From assembly GCA_026770705.1 (NCBI GenBank), contig JANJGN010000026.1:40176001-40240000 (forward strand): a stretch of DNA of 64,000 nucleotides, in the 5' to 3' direction. The notes beneath the pieces are model-generated. The model searched no databases and was not told the DNA's origin. It was given only the letters and a program-made list of their open reading frames with translations. Every line of letters starts with the position of its first letter. The stretch's first letter is position 1. This DNA comes from Isurus oxyrinchus. Taxonomy: Eukaryota. Position numbers and translations under genes: made by a program. This document shows, one piece after another, positions 11,481 through 64,000 of this stretch.

Positions 11481-11557
11481 CACACTGCTGCAGAGATATA
11501 GCGTATCCCGTACAAAAACCCCGCTGGGAGTTCCAGTCAGTGCTCAGCAGAGGGCGC
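11481..11557 (+). promoter_or_regulatory. RSS (nonamer 11512-11520) plus adjacent CTCF motif (11544-11557)
   Basis: CACTGCT+22 (or CACACTG+24)+ACAAAAACC, then TCAGCAGAGGGCGC. Confidence 0.8.
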
Positions 11558-12448
11558 TGTCACACCGAAAAAACAGAAACAATTCAGCCTGTAACTCTTT
11601 AGAGTACAAACACGTTTCCATCTGTTTCAGATGAAGTTACATTGTGTCATAGTTTGCCATTGTGAGATTTGAACTCTTGATCTTGGGGTTTGCAAACCCA
11701 GTACCATAACAACTTGGCTATTTAGGTTTGTAGGTGTCACAGGGTCATTAATGAAATATCAAAACCAATCATAACGCTGAACAAGAACAGCTGAGCAGCA
11801 ACTGAGGAATTCTATGAGTTGGGATTTTATCATGCATCTATAATAAACATGAATTTCCCAAATTAATTTGTGGTGCGTTAATTCACATTTTGCCTTTTGA
11901 TGATCTTTCCTTGCCTGTCGGAATTATTGCCCCTTTCTCCATCTCCACTGTCCCTTTCGAAGTCTCTTTGGTCAACGCCGGCACATGTTGTCTATTTGAC
12001 CAGACTATTTTTCTGGTTCATGGAAGGTAGGTTGAAAATGAACACATTTCACAAGGGAATGATTGTGCTCTTTTAAACAAGCCCCAAGCACAGAGTTCCC
12101 TCAATGTGCATTGTCCTTTCGAGTGTCTGCTTGATATTTTCTTACACCATTCACAACCCGGTGTTTCTGTTTTTCAATAACCAGTTAAGGGGATCCATCC
12201 CCACCCCTGTCCCTAATAATATAACATCCCCGTTATAAGGACACAGACAATAGCCCCGCTCGGGCTGTTTACATTCACTGACAGCCGCTCCCCTCCACCA
12301 CCAAACCCCCCGCCCACCCCACCACCTACAGGTCTTAAAGAACCAACGGATACACAAGGGAATGAGGTGAGAGGGTCCCGAGAGTAACAACCGATTATTG
12401 ATGGTTTCTTCTAATCTCAATTTCCCTTTCACAGAGCGGACAGCGACA

Positions 12449-12975
12449 ATGTCGACAAGCAGCAATTGGGGTGTATGGGGAGTGACCAGGGATTCCTGAC
12501 AGGGAACAGTGAAATAAACACATTTCATCTCATTTTCAAAACATGGTTTCAATCTGAATTTTAAACACTCTCCTGTATGAGCATTTTCTGTTTGATCATG
12601 TGTTTCAGGTCTGAGTTATGGAGATCGTTACTCAGATACTGTCCTCAAATGTTAAGACTGAAGGAGAAGTAGCTGGTTTAAGTTTCACTGATGATATTTC
12701 ATGGAGTGAATGCGTTTTATTCTGGTACCGGCTGATCCCGATCGGGCTGTATTTACAGGGGCAGTCTTCCTCATGTCTGCAGGCAATTGGTGAGACAGAC
12801 AACAGCAAAAGGACCGTTCAGACAGTCACACCTCTCTCTGAGTTAAGGAAGTGAACTGTGAAGAGCTCATCAGAAGCAGGGCACAACCGGGGTTTATGTT
12901 GGGAAGCAATCTCACTCCCCAGTACTTTGTGCTGTGCTTGGGAGCTCCTGCCTGTTGGGGTTTGTACAGAATCCA
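12449..12975 (+). pseudogene. Degenerate TCR V (family D)
   Basis: Leader remnant plus SYGD..TQ..KTEGEVAGLSF...LFWYR; 3' half scrambled; inverted paralog of 23390-23950. Confidence 0.65.
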
Positions 12976-13252
12976 GGGCAGGTGCAGCCATAATGTCCAG
13001 CGGCGCTGTCAGTAACTCAAACACACACCGAGAGAAAACCACATTCACCTCGGATCAAACCGGCAACAACTGTTTCCAGCAGCGGCCAAGAAAACAAACT
13101 GCAGAATCCGACCCTACCGAACACATGTCAAAAAAATCTACAGGTTAAACCATCTTTCCTGTTTCTGATCAGCTTTTATTTCCCTTAAACTCCGAGCTCG
13201 ATATTCAGATCAGCTCCGGGCAAGATGTTTCTGATCCTCAAACCAGACCGTC

Positions 13253-13305
13253 TGACATCACACTGACTGTAGGGCGAAGACGTCTCACGCTGCAGGGTGA
13301 CGTCA
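13253..13305. promoter_or_regulatory. CRE/ATF motif cluster upstream of family-E V
   Basis: TGACATCA, GACGTC, TGACGTCA (13298-13305). Confidence 0.6.
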
Positions 13306-13555
13306 CACAGGCTGTGGGTCGAGTCTTACTGGCGGATGCTCTGATGCATGCGCACTCCCCTCCCCCACGCCCCATCATGCTGAAGCTCCATCGCAGCTTC
13401 AGTTTGTGATCACAAGTCCTAGAGACTCCTGTCTGGCGGACGCAGTGTAACTGGTGTTGGGCTCAGTTTGATAGGGCACAGCGCTGCCTCCCCCGACATC
13501 GCCTCTTGGCCTGAATCTGTTGAGAGTTACTTTACTGAAGTCGATAGGGTCCAAC

Positions 13556-14056
13556 ATGAAGCTGAGCCTCACTTTAGTGATCATCTCCCTGGATTTCTTA
13601 CTTTTCCCTCCGTGTTAGTGTGCTCACTATTCCTGACCAGAATATTTTATACATCCCTTATGTTATTTCACATTGTACTTTACTTTATTGCATATCTTCT
13701 ATTATCTTGTTCTTATTGTGCTATATTATAGTTTATTGTGCTAGATAATATTGATTTCATCTTATTACTCTATATCTACATATTCTTCTCAGACTCCACT
13801 GACAGTGAAGAAATGTCACAATCTCCCAAGTCAGTGGTTGCTACCAAAGGAGAAACTGCATCGTTCAGCTGTTCCATTAGAGTAGGAGGACAGATCCTAC
13901 ACTGGTACAGGCAACACCCGGACAGAACCGTGCAGCACCTGGCCAGTGTTCGGGACAGGATCACAGCTCGGTTGATTGCAGTAGAGAAGAGCAGTGCTCT
14001 GAATGTTAGTGACGCTCGAGTGACAGACACCACCACCTATTTCTGTGCGGTTGGGA
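13556..14056 (+). CDS. TRAV/DV: Apparently intact TCR V gene (family E): leader 13556-13613, V exon 13793-14056; very short CDR2
   Basis: MKLSLTLVIISLDFLLFPP|YSTDSEEMSQSPKSVVATKGETASFSCSIRVGGQILHWYRQHPDRTVQHLASVRDRITARLIAVEKSSALNVSDARVTDTTTYFCAVG; GT/AG phase 1 (donor choice inferred). Confidence 0.85.
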
Positions 14057-14095
14057 CACAGTCCAGCAAAGATCAGTAGAGATCGTACAAACACC
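14057..14095 (+). other. 23-RSS
   Basis: CACAGTC+23+ACAAACACC. Confidence 0.88.
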
Positions 14096-14999
14096 TGCCA
14101 GCGAGACGCTGACGGATTGTAATCGGTACAGACATCAGAGCGGGCAGTCTCACTCCGGCTAAACAAAAGCAATAAAGGAGCCTCCACAGTGAGGGTCACA
14201 GGGACCTTCCTAAAACACCTAATAACAGCAGCAAAGAAGAAGAGCTGAGGAACACTTGCGCAATTATATTAGTTGATTTCAACTCGAGTTTGTACCATAA
14301 TCGATTTTCATAAATCAATTTGATCACTTTCATTTACTTATTGCCTTTTTATGCAGTTTCAGTGCCTGTCTGTAATATTGAACAACTCTTCCCCATTTAT
14401 ACACAATGAACCCAGCTCACCAGGCAGTGACTGTGATGTCTAAAACAAACTTCAGATATAGAGTTCACCCACTGACCATTGAGCTTCAGAATGTTCCTTC
14501 AATGCTGGAATATTTTCTGTACCCATTAACAATCCCAAATTTGCTAGTGATAATGAACAGATCAGGATTGAACTCCGCGCCCCCCCACCTCCCCCCACCA
14601 CCACGCCCATCTCTAAAAGTGCAGGATTTCCCCTATCTGACTGTAGTCCAGCTCAGGATTTTTCCATTCAATGTCAGTCAGCTCACCACCGAAGGATCTC
14701 ACGGACCCATGGAGACACAAAGAAGTGAGATGAAAACTACCTGACACATAGCAGCAAACTATTAAGGGCGGGGATTGGAATGGGTATCTTCAAATCTGAT
14801 TCTGTGATGATCTGTCAGTCGGATCGGATTCTGCAGTTTGTTCTCTCGGTCGCTCCTGGAAACAGTTGGGTGACAGTTTGATCTGAGGTTAAAGTGGTTT
14901 CCTCTCGGTGTGTGTTTGAGTGGTTGACAGCACCGCTGGACATTCTGGCTGCACCTGCCCGAAATTCGATGCAAACCTCAACCGACAAGAATTCCCAGA

Positions 15000-15270
15000 A
15001 TGGAGTGAATAGAGTTTCACTAGGAAGGAAATACGTATTGAGAAGTAAGATAATGATGATGAGCGGACTGAGGGTGTTCCACAGGATGGTCCTCCTCTGC
15101 ATTGCTGCAGTCCGGGAAAACCTCTGTCAGAGCAGAAATACCGAGCCCGGCCCCACTGAACTGCCGGCCCAAACAATGCCAACTAGAACACAGGCAGCAT
15201 TCGGTCCAATAATAAGGCGGGTCAGAGAGGCGACAGCAAACGGAAGCTGTGGGCGGGGCTACATCAGGAA
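15000..15270 (-). pseudogene. Orphan family-A promoter and leader; V exon deleted
   Basis: ILWNTLSPLIIIILLL leader-like sequence and CCAAT-containing promoter alignable to 16385-16600. Confidence 0.65.
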
Positions 15271-15928
15271 GTCTTGTCACACATGGAATCCATTTGTAAG
15301 CAGCTGAAGTCAATAGTATTGTCCCCTTCGAAAATGACATAACTCTGCCTCTCTATAACAGCTGCGGCACTTTCATATTCATTCCATATTGGGGGAGAGC
15401 AGGGTGAGCACCGGCAAGTCAGAATTAGTAAATTATTCAATAATAAAGGGAATTATCATTAGCGACTTGGGATAAAACGAGGGTTGTATCTATGGGCAGC
15501 TGGATTAGTCTGTGTTAATGTTCAACAAGTATCAATGGTCTGAAACGGTTAAACTAAAGACAGGAAGAAGGGAATGTCTGAAATTATTCGTAACGGGTGG
15601 AGACAGAGGCTGAGAGAGAACAAGTCAGCAGGGAAACGCATCCAAGGAAAAGAAAGATGAGTTAAAGCACCATATATCGATTCGTAGTGTTCATTTTTCT
15701 TAGGTGTGAGAGTTGAAAACGCACATTGATATTACTGCTGAAGTGATCATTGTCAGTTCTTGTAAGGGGTTGTGTTTTGGTGCAATTTTAGGACGGTCTC
15801 TGTGCCTCCCACTGTGGAGGCATGATTATTGTTTCTATTTATGGGTGTGAGAGCGCCCTCTGCTGAGCACTAACTGGAACTCTCAGTGTGGGGTTTTTGA
15901 ACGGGGTCCACGTCTCTGCAACAGTATG

Positions 15929-16422
15929 GGCTCTCTGGCGCAGAAATATACCGCGCTGTCAGAGATCAGGGCATTGCAGATCATTAGCTCGGTAATCTTG
16001 GCTGTTTTATTTAACATAGCTGAAAAGCGATCGGTGATGTCGGTGTGTCTGTATTGTTTCCCTCCCCGAATGTGAAGCATGTACTGTGGAGGCTGCCCGC
16101 GGCGCTGACTGTACCAGTACACATAAGGGTTAGAATCGCTTGTTTTCAAGGTGCAAGTTAGTGTGACATTACTTTAATCTTCCGCCGTTATTTCAGCAAC
16201 CGGTTGTTCCACCGTCTCTGGGTGGCTCCATTCTAACATAAACCAATAGCAATAACAACAATTAGTATCAGCCTCATATAAATAAACATAATCGTCATCA
16301 ACATCACCATTTTCTTACTAAAAACAACATCTGGGTTACAGCATCAGGAAGAGAATGGAGTTTTACTGGGAAGGAAATACTTACTGAGAAGTGATGAGGA
16401 GCGGAGCGAGACGGTTCCCCAT
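15929..16422 (-). pseudogene. TRAV/DV: TCR V pseudogene (family A): leader 16385-16422, V exon 15929-16232
   Basis: ETVEQPVAEITAED*SNVTLTCTLKTSDSNPYVYWYSQRRGQPPQY...DSAVYFCARE; in-frame TAA, frameshifted leader; RSS CATACTG+21+TCAAAAACC; CTCF motif 15853-15866. Confidence 0.92.
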
Positions 16423-16879
16423 GGAAGTTCCTGAGTCTGCAATTTTGCAATGCAGGAAATTCTCTGCCGGAGCAGAAATACAGATCCCTGTTCCACTGCA
16501 CTGCTGACCCAACCAATGGCAGGGATGGACCAGCGGCAGCAATCACTCCAATGCACAATCGGATCAGAGCAACAGCAGAAAACGGAAACTGTGGGCGTAG
16601 ACTGAATACTGAATGAAGTGTGCAGTGACTCTCAGCTGCACCTGGTACTGCTGGAGCGGAAATAGCGACGGTTGAATCTGCAGAATTCTCTAACCATCCT
16701 GCACCTGCTCACTGTTCAACTGACTGAAACCAAATAAGGTGTTTAGAATCTTAGAAGAAGGACTGAGTCACGAGAGACTTCATGGAAAGAGTTATACAAT
16801 TCATCTTTCGTCTCCGCATTTTCCACATAGCCGGATATTCTGCAGTGGTTCCAGCTCTGAACAAATGGCAGTGAAATAA

Positions 16880-19410
16880 GAACATAAAACATAACATAAG
16901 AATATAAGAACGAGCAGCAGGTGCAGGCGATTCAGTCCCTCGAACCTGCCCAGCTATTCAATACGATCATTGCTGATTTCATTTCGGCCTCAGCTGCAAT
17001 ATCCCATCCTCTCCCCATAACCTCTCAACCCATTACTAATTAAAAATCTGTCTATCTCCTCCTTCAATTTATTCAACGTCCTGGCATACATTGCACTCTG
17101 AGGTAGTGAATTCCACAGATTCACGGCCCTTTGAGAAAAGTAATTGCTCCTCATTGATGATTTAAATCTGCCACCCCTTAGCCTAAAACTATGGCCTCTC
17201 GTTCTAGAATGCCCCACAAGTGAAAACATCCGCTCCACGTCTACTTCATCTATTCCCTTTAGCATCTTCTATACCTCAATTAGATCTCCTCTCACCCTTC
17301 TAAACTCGAGCGAATATCGGCCTAAACCGCTTAATCTCTCCTCATAAGACAAGCCCCGCATCTCTGGAACCAATCTAGTAAACCTGCTCTGAACTGCCTT
17401 CAATGCAATTACATCCTTCCTCAAGTAAGGGGACCATAACTGTGCACAGTACTCCAGGCAAGGTCTCACCAATACCTTGAACAATGGCAACAACACTTCC
17501 CTATTTTTATCCTCTATTCCTTTTGCAATAAATGCCAAAATTCCATTTTTCTTCCTTCTTACCTGCTGTACGTGCATACTAACTTTCAGCGATTCATGCA
17601 TGAGGGCACCCAGATCCCTCTGCACTGAAGCATTCTCAATTTTCTCTCCATTTAAATAATAAGTTGCCTTTTTATTCTTCCAACCAAAATTGATAACCTC
17701 ATCTGTGATAAACTCCATCTGCCAAATTTTGGCCCGTTCACCTAAGCTGCCCATATCCATTTGTAAATTTCTCACTTCTTCACTGCAACTTACTTTCCTA
17801 CCTATTTTGGTGTCATATGAAAATTTAGCTACAGTGCCTTCTATCCCTAAATCCAAGTCATTAATTTAGATTGTAGATAGTTGGGGCCCAAGGACCGAAC
17901 CTTTTGGCACCCCACTAGTTACAGCTTGCCATCTAGAAAAAGAGCCATTTATCCAGAACCTCTGCTTTCTGTTGGTTAGCCAATCCTCTATCCAAACTAA
18001 TATATAACCCCTAACTCCTTGTGAGCTTACCTTGTTTATTAATCTTATCTGTGACACCTTATCAAATGCCTTCTGGAAGTCCAGATATACTACAACCACA
18101 GGATCCCCATTATCCACTTTGCTTGTCATATCTTCAAAGAACTCTAGAAAATTAGTCAAACACGAGTTACTCTTCATAAAACCATGCTGACGCTGATGGA
18201 TTGCATTTTGACTTTCTAAATGCCCCATTACTATTTCCTTAATAATGGATTCCAACAATTTCCCAACGACAGACTTTAAACTAACTGGTCTGTAGTTTCC
18301 TACTTTCTACCTCCCCACTTTTTGAATAAGGGAGTTATATTAGCATTTTTCCAATCCTCTGGATCCAGAAAATTTTGGAATATTATAGCCAATGCAACCA
18401 ATATCTCTGCTGCCACTTCCTTCAAGGCCCTGGGATGTAGGCCATCTGGTCCTGGGGGCTTGTCACCCTTTAATCCCAATAGTTTGTTCAGTTCATTTTC
18501 TCTAGTGATGGTGATTGTTCTACGTTCCTCCTTCTCTATACCTTCTGCACTACCTGTTACTATTCGGGTGGCACTAGTCTCCTTCACTGTGAAAATTGGG
18601 GCAGAATATTGATTAAGTGTCTCTGCCATTTCTGCATTCCCCACTATTAACTCCCCAGTCTCATCCTCTAAAGTGCTAACATTCGCTTTAGCTACTCTAT
18701 TTCCTTTTATATACTTGTAGAAGCTTTTGCTCTCAGTCTTTACATTTTGTGCTAGTTTTCTTTCATAATTTACCTTTTTTCTTTTTATTATTTTTTCAGT
18801 AACCCTTTGTTGATCTTTAAACGTTTCCCAATCCTCCAGCCTGCCATTGAACTATGCAATTTGGTATGCCTTAGTTTTTGCCTTTAACTTCCTTGCTTAG
18901 CTGTGGATGCTCCCCGCCCCCTACCTCTTACCATCTTTCTTCCTCTTTGAAATACATTTTCCTTGGGAGGAATTGAATACCTCCTTAATTATCTGCCACG
19001 GTTCATCAACTGGCGTACTTTGTCGTCTTCCTGCCCAGTCTACCAGGGCCAAATCTGCCCTCACGCCTATGTAGTTACCTTTGTTCAACTCCAGAACACT
19101 AATGTGGGACTCAAGTTTCTCGCTCTCAAACTGAACCTGAAATTCTAGCATGCTATGGTCACTCTTCCCTAGAAGATCCTTTACTATGCGATCATTAATT
19201 AATCCCATGTCATTCCACAAAACCAAATCCAGTATAGCCTGCTCCCTCTTTGGTTCCACAGCATATTGCTCCAAGAAACAATCTCTCATATACTCCCTGA
19301 ACTCTCCCTCGAGGCTCCCTTGCCAATTTCATTAGTCCGGTCAATCTGCATATTACAATCACCCATCATTATTGCCGTGCCTTTCTTACGTGCTTCCAGT
19401 ATTTCCTGGT
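16880..19410 (-). mobile_element. CR1 LINE, 5'-truncated (EN remnant, RT, 3'UTR with microsatellite tail)
   Basis: PPGPDGLHPRALKE, YLDFQKAFDKV, SGVPKGSVLGP, LEFRRVRGDLIEV in frameshifted ORFs. Confidence 0.95.
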
Positions 19411-19959
19411 TTATACTGTAATAAGTGAATATAATATTTCCCTCTTTTTTGCTCACAAAATGATGGTCTTGGATTTTCGAATTTTCTGCTAATGGAAACA
19501 ATTATACACAATATACCACATCAAATTTCTTATCTTTTTCAATATTTCGAATAAATGTCTCCTTTGATAATTTGACAGAAGAAGACTAATAACTGCTTCT
19601 CTAGCCTGCTTAATTGAGGACATCTCCCCTGGTACATCCCAATCTACTTTCTGCAACACCTTGACATTCATGTAAATGGTATTTCCTTGGTGGCTAAAGA
19701 GTGGTTTATAAAGAATTATCATTGCTTTCCGCCATAAACATCAAGAAAAATAAAGACCGAGTCTGATTAGATCCAATTTAGATTTCTAAGAGAACATATC
19801 TGACATTGGTGTTTTGATATGTGAATCAATGAACGCGAAATCCACTCGATGGTCGAACTTCTAGAACGGATTGAACATAATCCGCCAGCAGAGGGCGCCA
19901 AACCCAAGCATGCTAATTAGAATGTCACGTGTCATCAAAGCTAAAGCCAATAAAGATGG

Positions 19960-20250
19960 TACCCTGAGTAAGGTCTGTCAGAGTGAGAGGTCGCCCATTT
20001 AAAACAGGGATGAAGAGGAATTTCTTCCCTCAGTGATGGTGAATCTGTTTATCCCAGAGGACTGCAGAGGCAGGGCCGTTAAATATATCCAAGGCCGAGG
20101 ACAGATTTTTAATCAGTAGGAGAATCAAGGGTTATGGGGAAAAGGCAGGAAACTGGAGTTGCATATTATGAGATCAGCCATGCTCTCGTTGAATGGCGGA
20201 GCAGATTGGTGGACTGAATGGCCTATTTCTGCACTTATAGTCTTATGGCA
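19960..20250 (+). mobile_element. CR1 LINE 3' end
   Basis: Alignable to the CR1 3' region at 16900-17250. Confidence 0.75.
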
Positions 20251-20375
20251 ACAGTGGGCCTGGCCCCCTGCAGTGTGTGGGTGGAACAATGAGATGAACA
20301 GAGCCCGGGTTCGCTCTCTCCTTCTCAATCTCTGGAACTTTCCATTCACATTCACTGAGAGAGTTTCACTCAGTC

Positions 20376-20875
20376 ATGTTTCTGATAATACTGGCGGCTC
20401 TGTTGGACAGTAAGTGCTGGATTACGTTTTTCAATATAGATTAGCAGGTTGGTCCAAAGAGCTTGTACTAGGAATTAATGTAGGTAATCATAGTTTAGTA
20501 AATTGGAATTTACTAATACTCTAGAGTTCGATTGAGTCTCTTTAAATTTCTGCTCTTTTCTTCGTCTATTTTCACAGGCGGACTATGTGCAGATCCAGTA
20601 ACGTAATCACCGGTGACATTAACTGCGCCGGAAGGGGACTCGGTGCAGTTAGATTGTATATATACAGTATGCAATGGTATCGGCAGAAACCGGCACAACC
20701 TGTAAGTTGGGTAATCAGCAAACTAATAGGACTGAAAATAGTTGAAATCTCAGGACGATAACTGGCGGCTGCTGACGCATCTAAGAAGTCCGGTTATCTC
20801 AAAATAAGTGGCCTGAGTGCCGAGAGCGCTCTGAGGCCCAGTGTCAGTTAAAAGCCGAAAACCCGTACAGAAAAC
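20376..20875 (+). pseudogene. TCR V pseudogene (family F): leader 20376-20409, exon from 20578
   Basis: MFLIILAALLD|..ADPVT*SPVTLTAPEGDSVQLDC..WYRQKP; RSS CCCAGTG+23+ACAGAAAAC at 20837-20875. Confidence 0.85.
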
Positions 20876-21054
20876 TCAGCGAGTATTCACTACTCAGCTA
20901 AGTGTTTTTAATGTCTATCTGCGACTTTAGTTTGCTCCCGAGCTCACAGAGAACAAGAGCTGACAGGTTTATTTTGAAACATTTGTATTGTTGTACTCGG
21001 CCTTGTCCAAATCAGCAGAGAGCCGGCCTGGGAAATTTTGAGACTCGACTCCAT

Positions 21055-21365
21055 GGCCCGAGTTATAGCTCTTCAGTAAATGTCTCGGAGCTTACCCGAA
21101 CATTTGATGTACCAACAGATGTAGAGAAAGCTCACAGGCATGGAATAACTATAGCTGATCATTACGGTCTGTTCTCCCACACAGTTAACTCAACGGGATC
21201 TTGGGACACTTGGTTGACACCACTCGTTACTGTAACAAAACAAAGAAGGTGTCAAAGTCTGGAATTGAATTTAACGCATGAAATAGACAATGACGCTTTA
21301 AATATAGAATTAACAAACAGCATGACCGTTATCAGAAAGGGCCATAGAGAGTACGTAGTGTCTGG
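21055..21365 (-). pseudogene. 3'-truncated family-C V remnant
   Basis: VSQDPVEL...WYIK..APRHLLKSYNSG plus leader remnant. Confidence 0.7.
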
Positions 21366-21404
21366 TGTAGACTTCGACAGACAGTAACTGAATTTTAAAC
21401 GGCT

Positions 21405-22540
21405 TTTCAGGTGAGGAAGTGAGGTGATCGTGACTACCATTGATATCAAGGCCACATTTGATGGATTGTGACTTCAAGGAGCCCTAGCAAAACTGGAGTC
21501 AATGAGAATCAGGAGAAAATTCTCCGCTGGTTGGAGTCATACTTAACACAAAGGAGGATAGTTGTGGTTGTTGCAGGTCAGTCATCTCAGCTACAGGAGT
21601 TCCTCAGGGTAGTGTCCTAGGTCCAACCATCTTTAGCTGCTTCATCAATGAACTTCCTTCCATCATAAGGTCAGAAGTGGAGATGTACGCTGATGATTGC
21701 AAAATGTTCAGCAATTCGTGACTCCTCAGATACTGAAGCAGTCCATGTCCAAATGCAACAAGGCCTGGATAATATCCAGGCTTGGGCTGAAAAGTGGCAA
21801 GTAACATTCACACCACACAACTGACAAGCAATGACCATCTCCAACAAGGGAGAATCGCCTTTGATGTTCAACGGTATTACCACCGCTGAATCCCGCACTA
21901 GGCACACCCTGGGGGCTACTATTGACCAGGAACTGAACTGGACTAGCCATATAAATACTGGCTACAAAAGCAGTTCAGAGGCTAGTAATCCTGTGGCAAA
22001 TAACTCACCTTCTGACACACCAATACCTGTCCACTATCTGCAAGGCACGAGTGAGGAGTGTGATGGAATAGTCCCCACTTGCATGGATGAGTGGAGCTCC
22101 AACAACACCCAGGAAACTTGACACCATCCAGGACAAAGGAGCCCACTTGATTGGCACCACATCCACAAACATTGAATCCCTCCACTACGTGGCACAGTAG
22201 CAGCAGGGTGTACTATCTACGAAATGCACTGCAGGAACTCATCAAGGCGCCTTAGACAGCACCTTCCAAACCCACGACGACTACCACCTAGAAGGACAAG
22301 GACAACAGATAGATGGGAACACCACCGCCTGGAATTTCCCCTCCAAGTCACACACCAACTTGACTTTGAAATATATCGCCTTTCCTTCACTATCGCTGTG
22401 TCAAAATCCTGGAACTCCTTTCCTAGCAGCAGCACGAGTGCACCTTCACCACAGGGACTGCAACAGTTCGAGAAGGCAGCACACATTCTCAACGGTTATT
22501 AGGGACAGGCAATAAATTCTGGCCCAGCAGGCATCCTGTA
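21405..22540 (+). mobile_element. CR1/L2-group LINE, RT to 3' end
   Basis: GVPQGSVLGP and YADD motifs; 3' tail shared with local SINEs. Confidence 0.9.
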
Positions 22541-22639
22541 AAATTACAATTCAGCATCGTACAAGATAATACAATATAGCAAAGTCCAGCAGAAGATAAC
22601 GGATCTGATGAGTGAAATATTGCTGTCAGAAATAGAGAT

Positions 22640-23064
22640 CACCCTCATGCGTTGGAAAGAGTAAGATACCCAGGAATGTGATCACTAAAGTGAAGCTCAG
22701 ATTCATGCGTCGGCTGTTATCGACTTGTATCTACAGGGACAGTCTTACATCTGTTTTCAGGCAATTGGTGAATCAGAAGATTCAAATCAAGAGAGGGACC
22801 TGGCGAAGGCATCACTGTTGTGTAATCAAACTGAACTCAACATCAATTACACTTTGTCTGGAGGACTCGGGTCTCTAGGACTTGTCATCACAAAGTGAAG
22901 CTTTGAGGGAGCTTCAGCATTTATGGAGTGTGGGGGAGAGGGGTGCTCATGCGTCAGAGTAACCGCCAGTGTGACGTAATTCTGCGGCCTGCGTGACGTA
23001 GGTCTGTCTGTGTAACATCACCTTGTAAACTTTGTGACGTCATCCGACAGACTATGTGACGTCA
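22640..23064 (-). pseudogene. Family-E promoter (CRE cluster 22971-23064) and orphan leader; V exon missing
   Basis: MNLSFTLVITFLGILLFP matches the 13556 leader; TGACGTCA at 23035-23042 and 23057-23064. Confidence 0.7.
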
Positions 23065-23389
23065 GGCTGTCTGGTTTGTGGAACAGAAACATTTTTCCTC
23101 GGAGCTGATCTGAATATCGAATCCTGAGTTTAAGGGAAATAAAACAGGAAACAGGAACAGGAAAGATGGTTTAACCTGTAGATTCATTTGGTGGTCGATC
23201 TGTTGGTAGGGCTGGAATCTGCAGTTTGTTTTCTCGGCCGCTGTTGGAAACAGTTGGGTGACAGTTTGATCCGAAATGAATGTGGTTTCCTCTCGGTTTG
23301 TGTTTGAGCAGCTGACAGCGCCGCTGAACCTTGTGGCTGCACCTGCTCGAGATTCGATGCAAGCCCCATCAGACAGGATCTGCCAGACA

Positions 23390-23950
23390 CAGCCCAAAGT
23401 ACCCGGACGAGACTGATTTTCATCGTAAACTCCGGCTGCGAGTCCTCCTTCGGACCAACTCGTCAAAGTTAACTTTCTCCGCTCAGGGAGAGAGATGTGA
23501 CTGCCTGAAAGGTGCTGTTGCTATTTTCTTGCCTCAGCAATTGCCTGAAAACAGATGTAAGACTGTCCCTGTAAATACAGCCAGATCGGGGCCAGCCAGT
23601 AACAGAATAAAACACAGTTCACCCCATGTAGTGTCATAAATGATACTTAAAGCAGCCACATCTCTTTCGTCGAAGCAAGTGAGGACAGTAGCTGAATGAA
23701 AACATCTCCATGACTCAGATCTGAAATGCATGTGCCAACAGGAAATTACTGACTGGAGGGTGTATAAAATTCGGATTGAAATCTTGATTCGGAAATGAGA
23801 CGAAATGTGTTTGTTCCACAATTACTTGCCATAATTATCTCTCCTCCCCCCGCCGCACCCTCCCCCCACCCCCTCCGCCCCCAACCTCCCCCTCACCCCC
23901 TCCCGACAACCATTTCAACCTAGATGCTGGGTGGCTGCATTGTCGATGCC
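23390..23950 (-). pseudogene. Degenerate TCR V (family D)
   Basis: SHGDV..Q..., FCY at the Trp position; inverted paralog of 12449-12975. Confidence 0.65.
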
Positions 23951-24675
23951 CGCTCTGTAAAATGTAAATTGTGATTAGAAGGAACTTGTTGTAATCTTCA
24001 CCATCAAGTATCTTCTGATGTTTCTCAACATCATCTCACCTCACTTCCTTGTGTATCCAGTGATGCTTTAAGGTTTGTAGTTGGGAACACGCTGGCAGCG
24101 AATGGAAACAACCCGAGCTGAGCTATAGTCAATGTCCTTTCAAGAGGAATGGTTACATGGTTAGGGACAGGGATGGGACTGGACCCCCTGGTCTAGTTAT
24201 TACAATTCAGAAGCACTGGTTTGTTAATGGCGTCAGGAAAGGTTTGACACTCGAAAGGAGAATGAACATTGCGGGAACTCTGTCCTCGGGGCTTGTTTTA
24301 AAGAGTGATAACACAACCTGATAAAGTGTCTTCGTTTTCTATAAACTGTTTTTGAACCAGCAAAGTACTCTGGTCAAATAAACACCACGTACAGGCTTTG
24401 ACAAAAGGGGCCTTGAAGGAGAGAGTGGAGAAGGGGAAAGGGCTGCATAAGAGTTCAGGCAGGCAATGAAAGATCATCAAAAGAATAAATGTGAGTTAGT
24501 GCAATACAAATTTATTTGTGGATTAAATTTTACTACAGTTGCAAGTTAAAATCAGCTAATATAATTCCTCAGTTGCTGCTCACCCGTTCTTCAGCGTTGT
24601 GTTTGTTTTGATATTTTATTGAAGACTCTGTGACCCTCACAGGCTGAGTTATTGCTTCAGTTTAGCGGTGTGAGA

Positions 24676-24750
24676 GCGCCCTCCGCTGAGCATTAATGGG
24701 AAATCCCAGTGGAGTTTTTGTACGGCATCCCCTATATCTTTGCAGCAGTG
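24676..24750 (-). promoter_or_regulatory. RSS (24713-24750) plus adjacent CTCF motif (24676-24689)
   Basis: CACTGCT+22+ACAAAAACT then TCAGCGGAGGGCGC. Confidence 0.8.
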
Positions 24751-25186
24751 AGAGTTCCAAGGCACAGAAATACACGGCGCCGTCGGATAGAAGAGCCCCG
24801 GTGATATTTAAATGAACCGTTTTGTTTCCTTTGTGCAAAACAGCAGAGAACCTGTCTGGGAAATCTGGAGACTTATCTACATTCCCTGAGCTATATATCT
24901 TCATTAAATATGTCAGAGCTTCCCCGGGATACTGGATGTACCAGAACAGGGTTGGGACAGCAGCCGTCGAATAATTACAATCCAGTTTTATGCTCTGTCC
25001 TTCCAGGACCTTTAATTCAGGGGAATCCTGGGACACTGAATCTTGACCATTTATTCCTGCAACAAAACACAGAATGTATCAAATATCTGGGAGTGAAGAT
25101 AACACAAGTAACGGACACGACCATTTAAACATTGACTCACCAGGTAGCAAGATCATTATTAGCAGCAAAGAACATGGGGAGCACAT
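24751..25186 (-). CDS. TRAV/DV: Intact TCR V gene (family C): leader 25141-25186, V exon 24751-25056
   Basis: MCSPCSLLLIMILLP|GINGQDSVSQDSPELKVLEGQSIKLDCNYSTAAVPTLFWYIQYPGEALTYLMKIYSSGNVDKSPDFPDRFSAVLHKGNKTVHLNITGALLSDGAVYFCALEL; canonical Cys/Trp/Cys and GT-AG. Confidence 0.93.
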
Positions 25187-26149
25187 GGTGACAGGATTAG
25201 AGCTCGGAAGAAATAAGATAAGATTTGAGATATGTTGACACTTCTGTTCTGATATTAAAGAGGAAATTCAGCTCAGGGGCAGACTTCACCTACTGAGGAA
25301 CTGAGGGGCGTTTCCCAGCGACAGGATTGGCTGGTCTCTCAGAACTGATGACAGTTGGGGCACCAATTAGTGTTAGTTTGGGCCGATTATTTCTTCTGAG
25401 TTTCTCTTTCTTCCTGTCTTTCTCGGGTTTTCGAGATCTCCCTTGGTCTCAGGATCTCTCTGGCTCGCTTTGTCTTTCGGTCTCTGTGGCTGTAACTCCC
25501 CTCTGGCTGTTTCTGACCCTCCATCACACATGCTTTCTCTGCCTCTTTCTCTGTCACCCGGTTTCCCTAATTTCAGAATGCAGAAAATCCAATTTTTCCC
25601 AGTCTCCCATTTCAATAAGTTCAGAAAAGTCCTCAATCAAGAGGAGCAGCTACAATAGATAAACTACTTAACCGCAGCTCGGAGGCAGCATTAAAATAGA
25701 AACAGTTAAGTTTACATCCCAACTATGGCACGCGTCCTATTCTTTGTCTGTGTTGATATTTAAGACTCGGCATCCCATCGGGATCTCGGTTGTTTCATTT
25801 CGTTAAAGCAAGCTTCTTTTAACCAGCAATGGCCGAGGTATTAAAATAAACAAGGGAACCACTAGGATTTAAAGTAAAGTTTAAATTAGCTCGCGTGTAT
25901 AAGTTCACCTGCACTAAGATACATTACAATAATAAGAAGAACTCTAGAAATGCGACATAATCATGCAACAATATCATGCTCCAGTAATTGCAGTTCCCTG
26001 ATCGTCTCTGTGCATTCACTGCAGCGGATATGGGCACAGTAACATGGTGATTATGAAACTGCTCTATTAATCTAGGAGGCCAAATGCCTCTCGGAAATTA
26101 TCCTTTCCCTATCGCCTGCTATCTTATCTTATTTTTCTTTGACTTCCTG

Positions 26150-49395: not shown

Positions 49396-49442
<47 letters not shown>

Positions 49443-51030: not shown

Positions 51031-52278
51031 GTCTGAGTGAATCTCTGTCTCTCTATAAGTGAATGGAATGATTTAGAGAGTGAGAAGAAGATAGGAAACC
51101 CGGGCTTTGTTTAACTCATTGTTCCACACACACACTGCTGGGGGCCAGGCCCATCGTGACCTCACTCAAGCTACCATCCTTATTGGCTCTGGTGTTGGTC
51201 ATGCGTGACTTTCTAATCAACATGTATAAACCTGGCGCCATCTGCTGGCAGATTCTGTTCAATTTGGTTGAGAGTGGGGCCTTTGGGTGGCTGTGGAATT
51301 CATTGGTATACATATTAAACAAGCATGCCAGATATTGTTTCCAAAGAATTGAAATTGGAGCTTATCAGACTCAGGCTTTCTTTTGTGTTTATGCCAGAGA
51401 ATAATGCATTTCTTTCTATATTACTGTTTGAAAATCAAGGAAAAACTATTTAGATAGGATGATAATATATAAGATATTACACATTAGAAGTAATGCACGA
51501 GGCAGGTACTAAGTGTGGCGGCCTTAAATGTAAACAGACGAGGAAAACTGGCGTTATTCTTTTATGAAAGGATTTAAAGGAGATACTTAATTGAAGTAGT
51601 CAAAATGATAAGAGATCTGATGTAATAAATCGTGCATTATTGTGCCCAGTGGCAGAAAATTCGATAACGCATACACCCCATTTTCAGAGAAGAAAATGTA
51701 AGAAAAAATAAGCAAAAAGGTGAAATTCACTCATTACACTGTGTTGAAACCTAAAATGCACGACCTAAAGGATGGAAGAAGAACATTCAATCGGAACCTT
51801 CAAAAAGAAATTGTTTGCAAGTTGAAAGTGAGAAAACTTGCCCCTCATGCGGAAACTGCAGGAGTTGAAAGGCGGTTTTGATAACTCTTCCAAACAGACA
51901 CAGGGATGGTATGGCAAATAATCTAATTCAGTGGTTTAAAATTACATGATTCAAGTTTCTTCATGCCTCTTCTGCTCTATTTGCTCTCTGTCACTTGAAC
52001 AGTGAGCAGCTGCAGGATTGTCACAAACTTGTGAAATTTCAACCGTCGCTATTTCCGCTCCCTCAGTTCAGAGAGCAGCTGAGAGTTATCGCGCACTTCA
52101 CTTAATATTGAGTCTGCGGTATCCCCGCCCACAGTTGGTCAGTCTCTGACCCGATTATGTTATTGGAACGATTGCTGGCGCTGGTTCATTCTTCTCATTG
52201 TTTGGCTGGGCACTGCAGTGGGGCGGGGGTCTGTATTTCTGCTTTGACACAGGATTCTTTGCATGTAAGTTACAGACT

Positions 52279-52797
52279 CATGACGTATCAAGGGGAACAA
52301 TTTCACTCCGCTTTTCATTGTTATATCATTTCTCAGCAAGCATCTCCTTCCCAGTAAAGTCCACTGTCCTCCTGATTGCTGTGACCCAGATGTCACTGTT
52401 GTTAAAATAATAGTGATGGCGGGGATGATGCTTATGTTGACCGACACGAAGCTGATGCTGACTATTGTTTTTACTTTTCTTTAATGTTAGAATGGGACAG
52501 CCAAGGCACAGTAGAACAGCCGGTTCATGAAATACTGGATGAAGAGGAAATTAATGCTGCACAAACTTGCATTTTTAAAGCAAGCAATCGCAGCTTTTAT
52601 GTGTAGTGGCACAGTGAGCATCCCAGGCAGCCTCCAGAGTGGAAGCTTCATCATGTTCGAAAGAATGTGTACCGGAGCGCCGATATCAATCATTGGTTTT
52701 CTTCTTCGCTTAATTAGAAATGCCAAGATCGTTGATCTAACGATCGGCAACACATTGATTTCCCACTCTGCCGTGTATTTCTGTGCCATGAGCCAAA
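52279..52797 (+). pseudogene. TCR V pseudogene (family A), exon from 52491; RSS 52798-52835; CTCF motif 52857-52870
   Basis: GTVEQPVHEIL..QTC...YV*WHS..PRQPP...HSAVYFCAM; CACTGGT+22+ACAAAAACT. Confidence 0.9.
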
Positions 52798-53516
52798 CAC
52801 TGGTACAGAGAGATCGTGGAACGAAGACAAAAACTCACAGTTTTTTCAATTACCGCTCAGCAGAGGGCGCTGTCACACCCACAAAAAAGGAAGAATTCTA
52901 CTTCGAATGTGAGGTCACGCGGACCTTTTCAAAAGATCATCACATTCAACAAGAACAGCTAATTACATTAGCTTGTCTTTAAAATTTGAATTTATAATAA
53001 AAACGAACTTTGTAAATGGCAATGTAATGCTTCAATCCCACTTATCCTTTTTGACGCATTTCCCTGCTGACTTCTTTCTTATCATCCCTTCTCCTTTCGG
53101 TAAAAAAAATGTGTACAGTTTCTTCTTTCAGTCTTTGATTTAAGGAGATGGCCCTTTGCTACTTCTCTGGGTATTAATTCACAACCCCTCCAACCCCGAT
53201 GCCTATAGATTCAGCCCTGGATACGAGAGGTTATTCATGAAAAAAATGGCCTTTAATTGAATAATATAATAATCCTGATACTCCTGTCCCGAATCTGCTC
53301 GTCCCCAGTATGGAATGAATATGTGAGTGCCGCAACTCTTCTAGAGAGGCAGACTTATATCCTTTTCGAAGCGGATATTACTACTGGTTCGCTTCCTTGC
53401 AGATGAATCCGAATGTATGATATCATGAAGATAAAAGCAAAATACTGCGGATGAAACAAAAACAAAAATACCTAGAAAGACTCAGCAGGTCTGACAGAAT
53501 CTGCGAAGCGGAATAC

Positions 53517-53555: not shown

Positions 53556-55583
53556 AAGGAAAAAGAGAAATGAGATGAAATATATGCTGTTGGGTGGGGG
53601 GGGGGGGGGGGGGGGGGGGGGGAGGGGGGAGGTGCGGTGTGGTGGGACAAGTAGAGCTGGGTAGGGGGCCAGTGATAGGTGGAGGCAAAGAAGAGATTGC
53701 CAAAGATGTCATAGACAAAATGACAAAGGGGTGTTGACGGTGGTGACATTATCTAAGGAATGTGCTCATGGGGATATTAAGGGTAGCAAGCAGGACAAGC
53801 TGGTGGCAGATGGCCCTATTGCGGGTGGGGCAGGGGGAAGGGATCGAAATGGGCTGAAAGGTGGAGATTAAAAAAATAGATCGAAATAAATTTTAAAATC
53901 GGTGGGGAAAAAATATATTTTTATTATATATTATTGGAAAAGGGGGTATCGGAAAGGGGGTGGAGATGGAAGAGAGAGTTCATGATCTGAAATTGTTGAA
54001 CTCAATTTTAAGTCCAGAAGGCTGCAAAGTCGGAAGATGAGGTGTTCTTCCTCCAGTTTGCGTTGAACTTCACTGGAACCTTGCAGCAGGCCAAGGCCGG
54101 ACATGTGGGCATGAGAGCAGGGTGGAGTGTAGAAATGGCAAGCGACAGGGAGGTCTGGGTCATGCTTGCGGACAGGCCAAAGGTATTCTGCAAAGCGGTC
54201 ACCCAGTCTGTGTTTGGTCTCTCCAATGTAGAGGAAACTGCATTGGAAGCAGCAAAGACAGTAGACTAAATTGAGGGAAGTGCAAGTGAAGCACTGCTTC
54301 ACTTGAAAGGAGCGTTTGGCTCCTTGGACGGTGAGAAGGGGTAAGTGTTGTATCTTCTGCAGTTGCATGGGAAGGTGCCGTGGGAGGGGGTGAGGTGTAG
54401 GGGGTGATGGAGGAGTGGACCAGGGTATCCCGGAGGGAATGATCCCTGCGGAAAGCCACCGGGGGAGCGAAGGGATTATGTGTTTAATGGTGGCATCATG
54501 CTGGTTTTGGTGGAACTGGCGGAGGATGATCCTTTGAATGCAGAGGCTGGTGGAGTGATAAGTGAGGACAAGGAGGACCCTATCATGGTTGTGGGAGGGA
54601 GAGGAAAGTGTGAGGATGGATGCGTAGGATATGGGTCGGAACTGTTGAGGGCCTTGTCAACAACCGTGGGTGGAAAATCGAGAATGCTTCACTGCCCCTG
54701 GCGGCTTTCTGCAGGGATCGTTCCCTCTGGGACACCCTAGTCCACTCCTCCATCACCCCCTACACCTTAACACCTTCCCACGGCACCTTATCATGCATCT
54801 GCAGAAGTTGCAACACCTGCCCCTTTACTTCCCCCCTCCTCACCGTCCAAGAACCCAAAGACTCCGTTCAAGTGCAGCAGTGCTTCACTTGCACTTCCCT
54901 CAATTTAGTCTATTGCATTCGCTGCTCCCAATGCGGTCTCCTGCACCTTGGAGAGACGAAACGGAGACTGGGTGACTGCTTTGTGGAACACCTTCAGCCT
55001 GTCTGCAAGCATGACCCAGACCACCCTGTCGCTTGCCATTTCAACACACGACCCTGCTCTCATGCCCACATGTCCGTCCTTGGCCTGCTGCATTGTTCCA
55101 GTGAAGCCCAACACAAACTGGAGGAACAGCACCTCATCTTCCGACTTTAGGCACTTTATAGCCATCTGGACTTAATATTCAGTTCAACAATTTCAGATCA
55201 TGAACTGTCTCTTCCATCCCCACCCCCTTTCGGATCACCCTTTTTCCCATAAATTATAATTTTAAAATATATATATTTCTCTTTTCCCACCTATTTTGAA
55301 ATTTAATTCGATCTATTGTTTTATCTCCACCTTTCAGCTCATTTCAAACCCTTCCCCCCACCCAACACCCATTATGTCCATCTGCCACTAGCTTGTCCTG
55401 CTTGGTACCCTTAGGGTCCCTATTCCTTAGATAATATCACCAACGTCAACACCCCTTTGTCCTTTTGCCTATGACATCTTTGGCAATCTCTTCGTTGCCT
55501 CCTTATCACTGTCCCCCAATCCAGCTCTACCTGTCCTACCCACCTCTGCCAGCTTATAGTTCACCTCATTTCTCTGTTTGCCT

Positions 55584-59760: not shown

Positions 59761-60101
59761 ATGTTCCAGATTTACTGGGTTTTCGTGATGGTTTATGCAC
59801 TTCTCAAATGAAGCTGAGGTTGTGCAGCTCCCTGGGCGGCTGGTTCTCAGTGACGTGGGAATCGTATCCATGAACTGGTCGGCTACCGTCTCGTACTGGG
59901 ACAGACTCCGCCCGTAACAGCCCCTCCAGCATCTGGTTATGGCCACATGTGGTACCGATCAACAAGGAAGGATCACTGTTGCAATCCGGTGAGTCAATAA
60001 ATTTAGCACAATGACCTTGAGGGACATCCGAATGACAGACAGCGCCACCTATCTCTGTGCCGTGAGGCCACAGAGTAGCAAACAGAGTCCGTACAGAAAC
60101 C
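59761..60101 (+). pseudogene. TCR V pseudogene (family B)
   Basis: EVVQLPGRLV...PLQHLVMAT...DSATYLCAVR; RSS CACAGAG+17+ACAGAAACC (spacer shortened). Confidence 0.88.
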
Positions 60102-61219: not shown

Positions 61220-61500
61220 TCTCACTGCACTGTAATACACCGCAGTGTCTGATAGCCGGACTATGATAACGGTGAGAGTGATGGAGCATTTCTCACTGCT
61301 CCAGGATACTTTAAACCTTCCCGCAACTATTTCATCTCTGAGTGTGGGGACATAATACTAGGGAGCTCGTTTGGAGAATTGCCGGTAACAGAATCCAAGA
61401 TCACTGGTAGCGAAAGTAGCAGAATGATGAAGTGAAATAGTTTGTCCTTCACTTCCCCCATACACCGAGATCCGAAATGTCTCCGACTTACAAACAACAG
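61220..61500 (-). pseudogene. TCR V pseudogene
   Basis: SEGQTISLH...FCYRQFSKRAP*Y...GRFKVS...LSDTAVYYSAVR; both Cys lost; degenerate RSS. Confidence 0.82.
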
Positions 61501-61610
61501 CTGCGAGAACAAGAATAAAATTAGCATCATGATATGTAAAAGGAACATAATTATATGAAATTATATAAATCTATAATTGTTTTTGCATAATAAACTGATA
61601 TATCTTCCTC

Positions 61611-61749
61611 NNNNNNNNNNNNNNNNNNNNNNNNNNNNNNNNNNNNNNNNNNNNNNNNNNNNNNNNNNNNNNNNNNNNNNNNNNNNNNNNNNNNNNNNNN
61701 NNNNNNNNNNNNNNNNNNNNNNNNNNNNNNNNNNNNNNNNNNNNNNNNN
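61611..61749. other. Assembly gap
   Basis: N run. Confidence 1.
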
Positions 61750-62072
61750 ATTTATCTCCTTGCTTATGTTTCGTTTTCTCGTTTATGTACCTATCTAGGT
61801 ATATGAGAGTCACATACCTTTGTCTGTCCATATCTTTACTTCGTATGTTCTATAACCAAGTTTTACTTAATATGTTTCTGGGCGCCGTATCTACAGCAAC
61901 AGCCTTGGAATTTTCTAACTTTATCCAGATGGAGGTTTGAAAATGAGAAAGTAACATTTCTGACCATCGCCGGCATTTCAAAAGGCCCCGTTTGGGTAAA
62001 AGTTAAAGGTGCAGCGGAGAAGGGCAGTGAACAAGATATTGTACGGCCTGATCCGCTCTATGTCTCACTGTG

Positions 62073-62501
62073 TCTGCTTCACGCAGTGATAGATTCCGGC
62101 GTCCTGGACGGCTGTGTTGTCTATAGATATGGTGTTGAAATTCTTCACTCGATCAAAGAACAATGCGGAGCGTCCTTCTGTCCGCTCTCCTGATATTAGG
62201 AGCCAGTAAGTGTCGGAGCCCCTGACAGTGTTTGCCTGTACCAGGCTACTGTATGACCAGAGCCAATAGAGAGCCGACAGCTCATTTCAACCCGTTCCCC
62301 TTCCCGACACACCACCTGCTCAGGGTGGGAGCTCTGATCCTCAAACTGAACGACTGTAAACAGAGGGAAAATTCCACAAACTACGACAGGGTATTAAGAG
62401 ATTGGTTAGACAATGCATCTGACTAGGTAAATAAACTCACACAATATCCAGAGCATCAGGGACCCTATTGTAAACAGGCCTTTGCAGGGGTTTCTGTTCA
62501 T
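62073..62501 (-). pseudogene. Divergent TCR V with one frameshift: leader 62441-62501, exon 62073-62353, RSS 62034-62072
   Basis: QVVCREGERVEMSCRLSIGSGHTVAWYRQTLSGAPT/..GERTEGR...QDAGIYHCVK; CACAGTG+23+ACAATATCT. Confidence 0.88.
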
Positions 62502-63473
62502 GATGACGAAGATGAACAAAAGGCGGATCCATCAGGGTCTGATTTCCAAGCTGGAACTTGCTGCCGAGCCCAGGGTTCACTATGGTGGAGAGGAGGGGGA
62601 GAGCGAGAGCTTCACATCCTCCGCTTATAGTGAATGACTGATGAGTGATTTTCTCACCAATCGACTTATTATTGGTTGCTGTCATCAGGCGTCATTCAGT
62701 GCATCACGCAGGGACTGGCTGTCTCAATGCAGAGAACTCTTGACCAGTCACTGGGAATGAATTTTTCCTTCTCTTTACAACAATAGATTATTTTATTTAG
62801 GTTGATTGGATCTCTGGGGTATTTTTAACGTCAGTGGTCATCGCTGGCTCAAAATCATTTAATTTAGCAGGGTTGTTTGCTGGTTCCTCATTGCCTGTAA
62901 ATAATTTTACTCCTTTGCCTTTAAATCCACATTTGCTTCATATTTGCTTTCTGTACCAGTGCAGTTTATATTTACCACGCCGCCTCAATGCTCTTTGGAC
63001 ACTATGGTTTCATTGAATGAGACAAACGTAAACTACATTTCCTGATTGACTTTCACTCCGATATCAATGAGAGAACTCCAGGCTGACATTCACGCCGCCT
63101 GGAAGTGTTTACGCGTAACTGTGCGCTTGCCGAATTTGTGCAATCCTGTATTCACCCCACTGTTCCGCGTTTTACTGCGGAGGGAATGTTTCCTTTAAGG
63201 GGAGATTGACCCACCAGACATCAAGACCAACAAGATAAAAATATCAGAATGTTGGAGGTAATCAGAGAAACCAACTGTCTGCAGCTCTCCTTGATTGGTG
63301 GGGAACTGTCATTATCTCCAACAGACCAGCCAATCCTCTCTCGGGTAACCACTCCTCTATTTCTAAAAAAGTGAGATCTGATCCTGATCTGGGTTGCACT
63401 TTAATATCAGACCAGAGGGATCAACATATTTAGAATAACCTGTGGTTTTCTGTTGCGCTCGATACCAGGCACC

Positions 63474-63950
63474 ATGTGCTCCCCATGTTCGTTACTGATA
63501 ATGATGCACTTGCTGCCTGGTCACTCTATGTCTACATTGTCAGTGTGTTTACAGGGGTTATATTTCCTCACTGACTTTTGAAAAATTCTGCATTTGTGTT
63601 ACGGGAACGAGTGGCGCGGATTCAGTGTCCCAAGATCCGTCTGAATGAATGATTCTGGAAGGACAGAGCATAGCATTGGACTGCAGTTACTCGACAACCG
63701 ACCCTGCCCAAACTCTGTCCTGGTACAACCAGCATCCTGGCGAAGCTCCGAGATATTTACTGAAAATATAAAGTTGGGGGATGAAGAGTAGTCTCCAAAC
63801 TTAACAGACAGGTTCTTTGCTGATTTGCACATAGGAAACAAAACTGTTCATTTAAATTTCTCCGGGGCTCTTCTCTCCGACAGCGCCGTGTATTTCTGTG
63901 CCAATGAACCCAAACTGCAAAAGAGATATAGCAGGTCCGGAGCAAAAACC
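63474..63950 (+). pseudogene. TRAV/DV: TCR V pseudogene (family C); CTCF motif 63974-63987
   Basis: MCSPCSLLIMMHLLP leader, acceptor AG>GG, DSVSQDPSE*, DSAVYFCANE; nonamer GCAAAAACC. Confidence 0.92.
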
Positions 63951-64000
63951 CCACTGGGAATTCCAGTTTGTGCTCAGCAGAGGGCGCTCACACACCGCGA

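Follow-up and report, generated by a model that had tools for sequence, protein, structure and literature searches.

V segments and their RSSs in the window

The stretch analysed here (the window) is 64 kb from the shark Isurus oxyrinchus (G000:C26:40176001-40240000; positions without a contig name are window coordinates) and holds at least 22 V ends, the majority broken, of an alpha/delta-type T cell receptor (TCR) array. In two of its V families, A (V ends 11469, 24764, and 63899) and B (711, 15940, 35374, and 52784), a predicted CTCF core lies behind the recombination signal sequence (RSS), and the end of framework 3, the RSS, and the core form a 3' cassette common to two V clades. The motif TCAGC[AG]GAGGGCGC occurs exactly five times in the window, in every case on the V sense strand, with gaps (the distance from the nonamer end to the core) of 23, 25, 23, 21, and 23 bp. 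All five copies listed in an initial annotation of this sequence were recovered as exact matches with the same positions, gaps, and strands, as were its two V families and the two decayed copies that it had placed near 619 and 35290 (Table 1). CTCF sites were scored throughout as mismatches to the consensus CCASYAGRKGGCRS printed in PMC6746451.

The proposal that this is a TCR locus of a cartilaginous fish agrees with the V-alpha-like protein, the 23-type RSS, and the J-alpha array and C-alpha-like exon on C242, a scaffold that itself bears cassettes. The open frame of V 24764 has matches to TCR V-alpha structures in PDB and one protein homologue, in houndshark (72% identity); two further protein searches returned no homologue. 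In the 24-bp register the RSS of this V lacks CAC, an alternative register being CACTGCT with 22 bp, and at position 24684 the consensus base is present in contigs of three related DNA runs. The core had been described as better preserved than the neighbouring pseudogene exons; among the five window copies covered by a comparison with the closest intact paralogue (52784 and 35374 lay outside it), this holds for 11469 (core 13/14 against exon identity 0.86), 15940 (13/14 against 0.90), and 711 (13/14 against 0.58), and fails for 24764 (11/14 against 0.90) and 63899 (8/14 against 0.84). A truncated family A fragment at 21003-21210 (-) is without a 3' cassette.

Table 1. Features of the window and, in the last five lines, of scaffold C242.
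Feature	Position	Strand	Remarks
Decayed core behind strongly decayed family B V (end 711)	622..635	-	2 mismatches to CCASYAGRKGGCRS; nonamer lost
Perfect consensus site	1897..1910	-	1.2 kb upstream of V end 711
Two consensus sites (7138, 7610)	7138..7623	+	upstream of the non-cassette V with end 8455
TRAV-like V exon, family A cassette-bearing subclade	11181..11480	+	frameshifted; start set by splice acceptor
RSS of V 11469	11481..11520	+	CACACTG, 24-bp spacer, ACAAAAACC
Candidate CTCF upstream (zinc fingers 9-11) motif GGGAGTTCC	11526..11534	+	9 nt 5' of core; without measurable conservation
Predicted CTCF core	11544..11557	+	gap 23
Predicted CTCF core	15853..15866	-	gap 25
Family B RSS	15892..15928	-	heptamer CATACTG with a spacer of 21 bp; probably a dead RSS
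Family B V exon	about 15929-16225	-	internal stop
Perfect consensus site upstream of non-cassette V (end 20824)	19885..19898	+	offset -940
Predicted CTCF core	24676..24689	-	gap 23; derived A-to-G change, 2 mismatches
RSS of V 24764	24713..24752	-	CTCACTG, 24-bp spacer, ACAAAAACT
Family A V exon	24753..25057	-	open frame; TCR V-alpha domains among best PDB matches
Decayed core behind family B pseudogene (end 35374)	about 35287-35300	-	5 mismatches
Paralogous site of 19885, before V 50590	51235-51248	-	offset -659
Family B V exon	about 52490-52795	+	frameshifted
RSS of V 52784	52796..52835	+	heptamer AACACTG
Predicted CTCF core	52857..52870	+	gap 21
Family A V exon	about 63600-63910	+	broken
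RSS of V 63899	63911..63950	+	heptamer CAAACTG
Predicted CTCF core	63974..63987	+	gap 23
NARTCR-like and V-delta pairs	C242 400-550 kb		inverted relative to J
D and J-delta	C242		
C-delta-like exon	C242 616.8 kb		
J-alpha array	C242 657-743 kb		about 85 J-alpha
C-alpha-like exon	C242 749.5 kb		

Distribution of the cassette across V segments

By protein similarity we gathered 160 V ends, which form 116 clusters at 92% identity; the regions were picked mostly through family A or B protein matches and some through motif matches, so these are a sample and not a census. Counting as present a forward core with at most three mismatches 40-110 nt past the V end, the cassette occurs in 46 of 51 clusters of two TCR-alpha/delta V clades (19/19 in a subclade of family A and 27/32 in family B), with 0-2 mismatches to the consensus in 38 of the 51 and three in 8 more. 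One family B row with a deleted core (L074_p3127) was counted by chance and one with an intact core (L070_p1989) was missed, with no net effect. An RSS-adjacent core was found in none of the other 65 V clusters, among them 8 sister rows of family A, and at none of 35 shark immunoglobulin heavy chain (IgH) V ends, 29 of these being close relatives; a reverse-oriented site with at most two mismatches was found at none of the 160 V ends. The gap is 21-25 bp in 43 of 46 scorable rows (mode 23-24), the other three, with gaps of 11, 16, and 20, being the few cases of a larger deletion in the linker.

A genome-wide pattern of nonamer, 15-30 nt, and core had 52 matches, 46 of them on contigs of this V array, and a reversed control had none; the pattern demands an exact nonamer, and V segments with variant nonamers escape it. 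A transposon origin of the cassette was considered and rejected, a 22-bp pattern being matched 30 times, all on C26, C151, and C152. Six of the 52 matches of the looser pattern lie outside the array contigs. At C3:128133579, C4:11920129, C4:21849321, and C30:6763872, a nonamer-like sequence stands 21 nt before a CTCF core within a different common flank, and these four matches probably come from a CTCF-site-bearing family of dispersed repeats. TCR-like V pairs about 3 kb apart, repeated many times and without an RSS-adjacent CTCF site, occur at L020, L094, L095, L097, and L098 (C26:5.96 Mb, C38, C42, and C49), IgH-like V segments being present on the same scaffolds.

Conservation of the core

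Conservation was measured as parsimony changes per column over 51 paralogue rows, with 129 flank columns. The core changes more slowly than its flanks (3.86 against 6.37 changes per column, with 3.44 for the nonamer), and none of 116 14-column flank windows is as low. With the window rows and possibly motif-chosen rows dropped (21 rows, leaving 30), the contrast is 2.5 against 4.19 (P about 0.0006, again 0/116 windows). Positions that are invariant in the consensus change 1.86 times per column and degenerate ones 5.67 times, and the CpG of the core is kept in 42 of 48 rows against 96 of 151 for three other CpGs of the cassette, the rows being related. These patterns point to a CTCF-type element under apparent purifying selection, and the higher conservation relative to flanking DNA that the initial annotation required of its proposal is found among the paralogues. 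DNA runs X1, X3, and X4 are 95-98% alike in their best pieces and therefore too close for a conservation test.

The linker between nonamer and core resembles the CTCF upstream motif (zinc fingers 9-11) printed in PMC12885311: in 14 of 45 rows, which are of one origin, a TGCAGTTCC-like motif with at most two mismatches precedes the core by 5-10 nt, against 4 of 270 control windows. Its columns change as fast as the flanks (6.22 against 6.37).

Single origin and transfer between families

Judged by identity among the copies, the five motifs and both families trace to one inherited cassette and not to five events. Comparing 15 rows of the A subclade, 26 of family B, and 7 of the sister group (11 long or truncated rows were dropped), the A subclade and family B are at background in the exon (0.39-0.58), at 0.76-0.79 in the stretch that opens 30 nt ahead of the cysteine and closes with the RSS, at 0.77 in the core bin, and at 0.63/0.56 in the flank, which equals family B compared with itself. 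The A subclade and its sister share 0.62-0.77 in the exon and 0.42-0.49 past the nonamer. This switch of identity within framework 3 makes the A subclade a chimera, and we infer that the cassette passed between the families by a crossover located about 30 nt ahead of the conserved cysteine; the direction would be from family B to the A subclade, family B being preferred as donor because of its greater 3' diversity.

The spacer is 24 bp in 25 of 29 callable cassette RSSs (mostly CACACTG) and in 1 of 35 other RSSs, with a shifted register of CACTGCT and 22 bp possible for the cassette RSSs. A one-base change in spacer length is reported to lower recombination, moderately or drastically depending on the study (PMC7753069), and the cassette RSS would be a weak one. 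Mouse VH genes with weak RSSs depend on RSS-associated CTCF-binding elements (CBEs), whose deletion reduces VH5-2 use 50-fold (PMC11153149, PMC10293834), a suggestive parallel to the pairing of a 24-bp RSS with a core in the shark. Because the cassette has one origin, this pairing counts as a single event. A houndshark gene model (P0001) crosses the V end in frame (AMEPTL...HKNP.LGVP); the read-through fits the heptamer, nonamer, and linker of the cassette with an apparent 22-nt spacer and then diverges before the core. This model, running through the V exon into the RSS, is likely a mis-annotation that preserves the 5' part of the cassette.

Genomic setting and the J-C end

Related V segments occur on C26 at about 23-40.3 Mb and on several unplaced scaffolds. 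IgH V segments recur among them at intervals of a few hundred kb; the one closest to the window, about 185 kb away, has a J and three constant-domain-like exons beside it, a unit that we take from familiar motifs to be an IgM cluster. Along C26, duplicated TCR V blocks and IgM-like clusters follow one another in alternation for about 17 Mb, in both orientations. The block in the window recurs at least eight times at 94-100% protein identity, and some of these copies may be haplotigs. TCR-type V exons between shark IgH clusters have already been reported (PMC12227049).

C26, the contig of the window, and C242, which carries J-alpha, are separate pieces of the assembly, and the join between them is not assembled. 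The constant exons on C242 are presumably C-delta and C-alpha, labels that we assign from position and known motifs. DAD1, sought as an orientation marker, had 26 matches, none of them on C26 or C242. Among 23 matches of the genome-wide pattern on C26, 16 sites are on the plus strand and 7 on the minus; on C242, cassette Vs are on the plus strand at 101.2 and 120.1 kb and on the minus at 152.4, 344.2, and 360.7 kb, and 24 of 41 sampled Vs are inverted relative to J. At C242:400000-552000 (L041-L056) stand tandem units of an NARTCR-like V and a supporting V-delta, all inverted relative to J-delta, and in front of each unit a short repeat carries one or two CTCF-like sites on the strand of the unit (14 sites, all minus). 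Nine plus-strand copies of this repeat lie within 2.8 kb at C242:365140-367907 (L156).

A perfect match to the CTCF consensus at C242:656316-656329(-) (L026), oriented toward the Vs and 733 bp upstream of the first J-alpha RSS, is the only site with at most one mismatch in C242:560001-764000; the rough chance of such a placement, reckoned after the fact, is 0.25%. In position and direction this predicted site is like the TEA site of mouse (PMC5859386, PMC4995090), and it would most likely be the partner anchor of the cassette sites. An INT1/2-like, J-facing site with at most one mismatch was absent from C242:400001-656000. A 3' super-anchor at C242:765-777 kb was considered and rejected, its 11 V-facing near-matches being variants inside a 43-bp minisatellite of about 290 copies. 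The minisatellite lies behind C-alpha at C242:764100-776700 (L037 and L038), the 11 units having one mismatch each and all facing the Vs, and near it is an outward-facing site at C242:778223.

Contigs of runs guessed to be RNA gave, against window positions 11000-25500 and 10 kb of the J-alpha array, short repeat-like pieces only, which are silent on expression. Judged by eye, the nurse shark TCR-alpha cDNAs (PMC5931798, available portion) include families that resemble window V 4602 and clade A.

Comparison with known recombination systems

As in mouse VH genes (7183 and Q52, including VH5-2/VH81X) and human IGHV, the shark core lies about two helical turns behind the V nonamer (PMC6746451, PMC4914699, PMC10293834, PMC11153149). 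The mouse spacing of 17-19 bp in the register of PMC6746451 is 19-21 in ours, so the closeness to mouse VH that had been proposed stands, the shark mode being 23-24. In these sources, mouse and human VH also share with the shark a core more conserved than the linker, a presence that follows V clades, and a position beside a suboptimal-looking RSS. The shark sites differ from them in standing on TCR-alpha/delta Vs, in a gap 2-5 bp longer and a 24-bp spacer, in pointing both ways relative to J without being confined, as far as seen, to J-proximal Vs, in being kept as predicted sites in pseudogenes, and in a linker that resembles the CTCF upstream motif. Two features of the VH type, the uniform facing of sites toward the D-J end and the loss of the site from non-functional Vs (non-functional mouse 7183/Q52 genes are typically without it; PMC6746451), are thus absent in the shark, which sets the shark layout apart as a variant of the mammalian VH element, probably a convergent one. 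Of the idea that an Igh-like module operates in a TCR locus, the spacing and the conserved CTCF-type core are upheld, and the mixed V orientation and the retention irrespective of V function go against it.

In mouse Tcra and Tcrd, forward sites lie upstream of several V families (PMC5859386, PMC4995090), as they do in the shark. Table 2 of PMC5859386 bears out that most of the mouse Tcra/d sites lie upstream of promoters: it gives the V sites upstream or intergenic positions and not places beside an RSS, and 129 of 144 face J-C. RSS-near CTCF sites do have a precedent in a TCR locus, two being given for mouse Tcrb in the same source. Mouse Igk (Cer/Sis) has V segments in both orientations, like the shark, and in Igk and Tcrb the CBEs act as dynamic impediments, with synapsis independent of orientation (PMC11153149, PMC10772921). 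Unlike the shark, mouse Igk has in these sources a CBE within 20 bp of the RSS at 0/103 V-kappa and relies on strong RSSs, and CBE orientation follows V orientation in the shark and not in mouse Igk. A CTCF orientation code has been reported for the borders of topologically associating domains in skate (PMC10115646). In the literature searched, which largely leaves subscription papers outside, we found no earlier report of shark CTCF sites at RSSs.

A proposed role in V capture and its alternatives

We propose, with moderate confidence, that the cassette binds CTCF, as its sequence predicts, and is likely to stall cohesin next to the V, raising capture of a likely weak RSS much as in mammalian VH. 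Loop extrusion would be held up beside the V by the site behind its RSS, and the pause would raise the chance that RAG at the D/J end of the locus captures it, through extrusion and then diffusion over a short range, a route proposed for mouse Igk and Tcrb. Linear scanning of the Igh type requires convergent RSSs (PMC11153149, PMC10293834); since cassette Vs occur in both orientations relative to J, extrusion with diffusion is more likely than strict scanning of this type. CBEs impede extrusion in either orientation (PMC10293834), so a local pause stays plausible, and an inverted RSS-associated site in mouse keeps substantial activity (PMC11153149, PMC10293834).

Several observations weigh against this proposal. 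None of the five window copies combines an open frame with a CAC heptamer in the 24-bp register, and, by a crude frame test on the last 270 nt, mean core mismatches are 2.0 in rows with an open frame and a usable RSS (n = 14) and 1.92 in the rest (n = 37). At dead-looking RSSs, invariant core positions depart in 2 of 98 cases and the A's of the nonamer in 5 of 77; because the nonamer A's, too, are mostly kept there, recent decay may explain the intact cores. The copies descend from one cassette and are therefore not independent, so the fixed gap is no independent evidence. With at least eight near-identical blocks alternating with IgM clusters, it may be that J-alpha is never reached by many of the copies. 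For the cassette V end, nine short motifs had no match in 447 nurse shark TCR-alpha cDNA rows (PMC5931798), which are from another species and come in the available text as at most 400 characters per row. Diffusional joining has been tied to strong RSSs (Zhang 2024, PMC11153149), a rule that, as given there, is hard to square with an inverted, weak RSS.

The alternative that fares best, less probable than RSS capture yet a serious competitor, is that the sites do bind CTCF and serve the folding or insulation of the whole array of IgM clusters and TCR Vs, their place beside the RSS being a copied accident of no special effect on it. Retention independent of V function would fit such a role, as would the abundance of sites elsewhere. 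The window has 14 sites with at most one mismatch, against a mean of 0.53 (maximum 2) in 30 shuffles; four are RSS-adjacent (the 24676 copy falls outside the 14) and the other ten lie elsewhere, several of them standing 0.7-1.8 kb upstream of other families' V ends and pointing in the V direction. RSS-adjacent and V-upstream placements thus coexist in the array, forward upstream sites being found for 10 of the 56 V clusters of other families that have enough upstream DNA. The TCR-V block is also far richer in sites (14 in 64 kb) than the surroundings of the nearest IgM cluster (1 in 60 kb). Against mere folding stand the scarcity of larger nonamer-core deletions (3/46 rows), the co-occurrence of the site with a non-standard spacer, and its transfer together with the RSS into family A. 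In one non-cassette family (19885(+) and 51235(-) in the window; L063, L078, and L084), a forward consensus lies 0.66-1.07 kb upstream of the V end, a placement that resembles the promoter-side sites of mouse Tcra.

It is improbable that the layout dates from the ancestor of jawed vertebrates as a homologue of the mammalian VH element, retained in some shark TRAV clades and lost from the shark IgH miniclusters. The gap is similar to that of the mouse and human VH sites and the strand relative to V is the same, a match that depends in part on the orientation convention. Linkage of IgH and TCR-alpha/delta in elasmobranchs (PMC12227049) and the way the mammalian sites, too, follow V clans (PMC4914699) would also suit common descent, but the core is absent from the 35 shark IgH V ends and a single cassette accounts for all occurrences among the 116 V clusters. 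Where the initial annotation had left the choice between a very old and a convergent mechanism, the IgH result leans toward convergence, and separate origins of the shark layout and the mammalian element are most likely. Least probable of all, and hardly to be expected, is a neutral passenger of V duplication and gene conversion that binds nothing: recent duplication of the blocks and homology among copies over the whole tract between framework 3 and a point about 150 bp beyond the core (identity 0.6-0.75) would allow it, but conservation peaks at the invariant CTCF positions, spares the degenerate ones, and keeps the core CpG, and a conversion tract would not single out columns.

Returning to RSS capture, a wider version is speculative and in our view rather unlikely as a whole: a portable cassette of weak 24-bp RSS and CTCF site, spread by crossover in framework 3, would work with the TEA-position anchor to pull Vs of either orientation, scattered over more than 17 Mb among IgM clusters, to a J-alpha centre. 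If this were true, CTCF-guided V capture would date back to the origin of jawed vertebrates, and control of recombination could be exchanged between V families as a unit. Steering of V(D)J recombination by cohesin and CTCF is known almost only from mouse, and a TEA-position site and a selectively kept RSS-adjacent one, both in the earliest-branching lineage with RAG-based receptors, suggest that such control is ancient or arose twice. The locus offers natural experiments, namely sister clades of which one bears the cassette and the other does not, cassette Vs oriented both ways, and copies whose core is deleted, and it tests the mouse rule that pairs weak RSSs with scanning and strong RSSs with diffusion.

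Apart from the V segments, the window holds long nested inverted repeats at 53768-55423 and 45894-47052, with arms of up to 316 nt that are 82-96% complementary; these are probably transposon ends.

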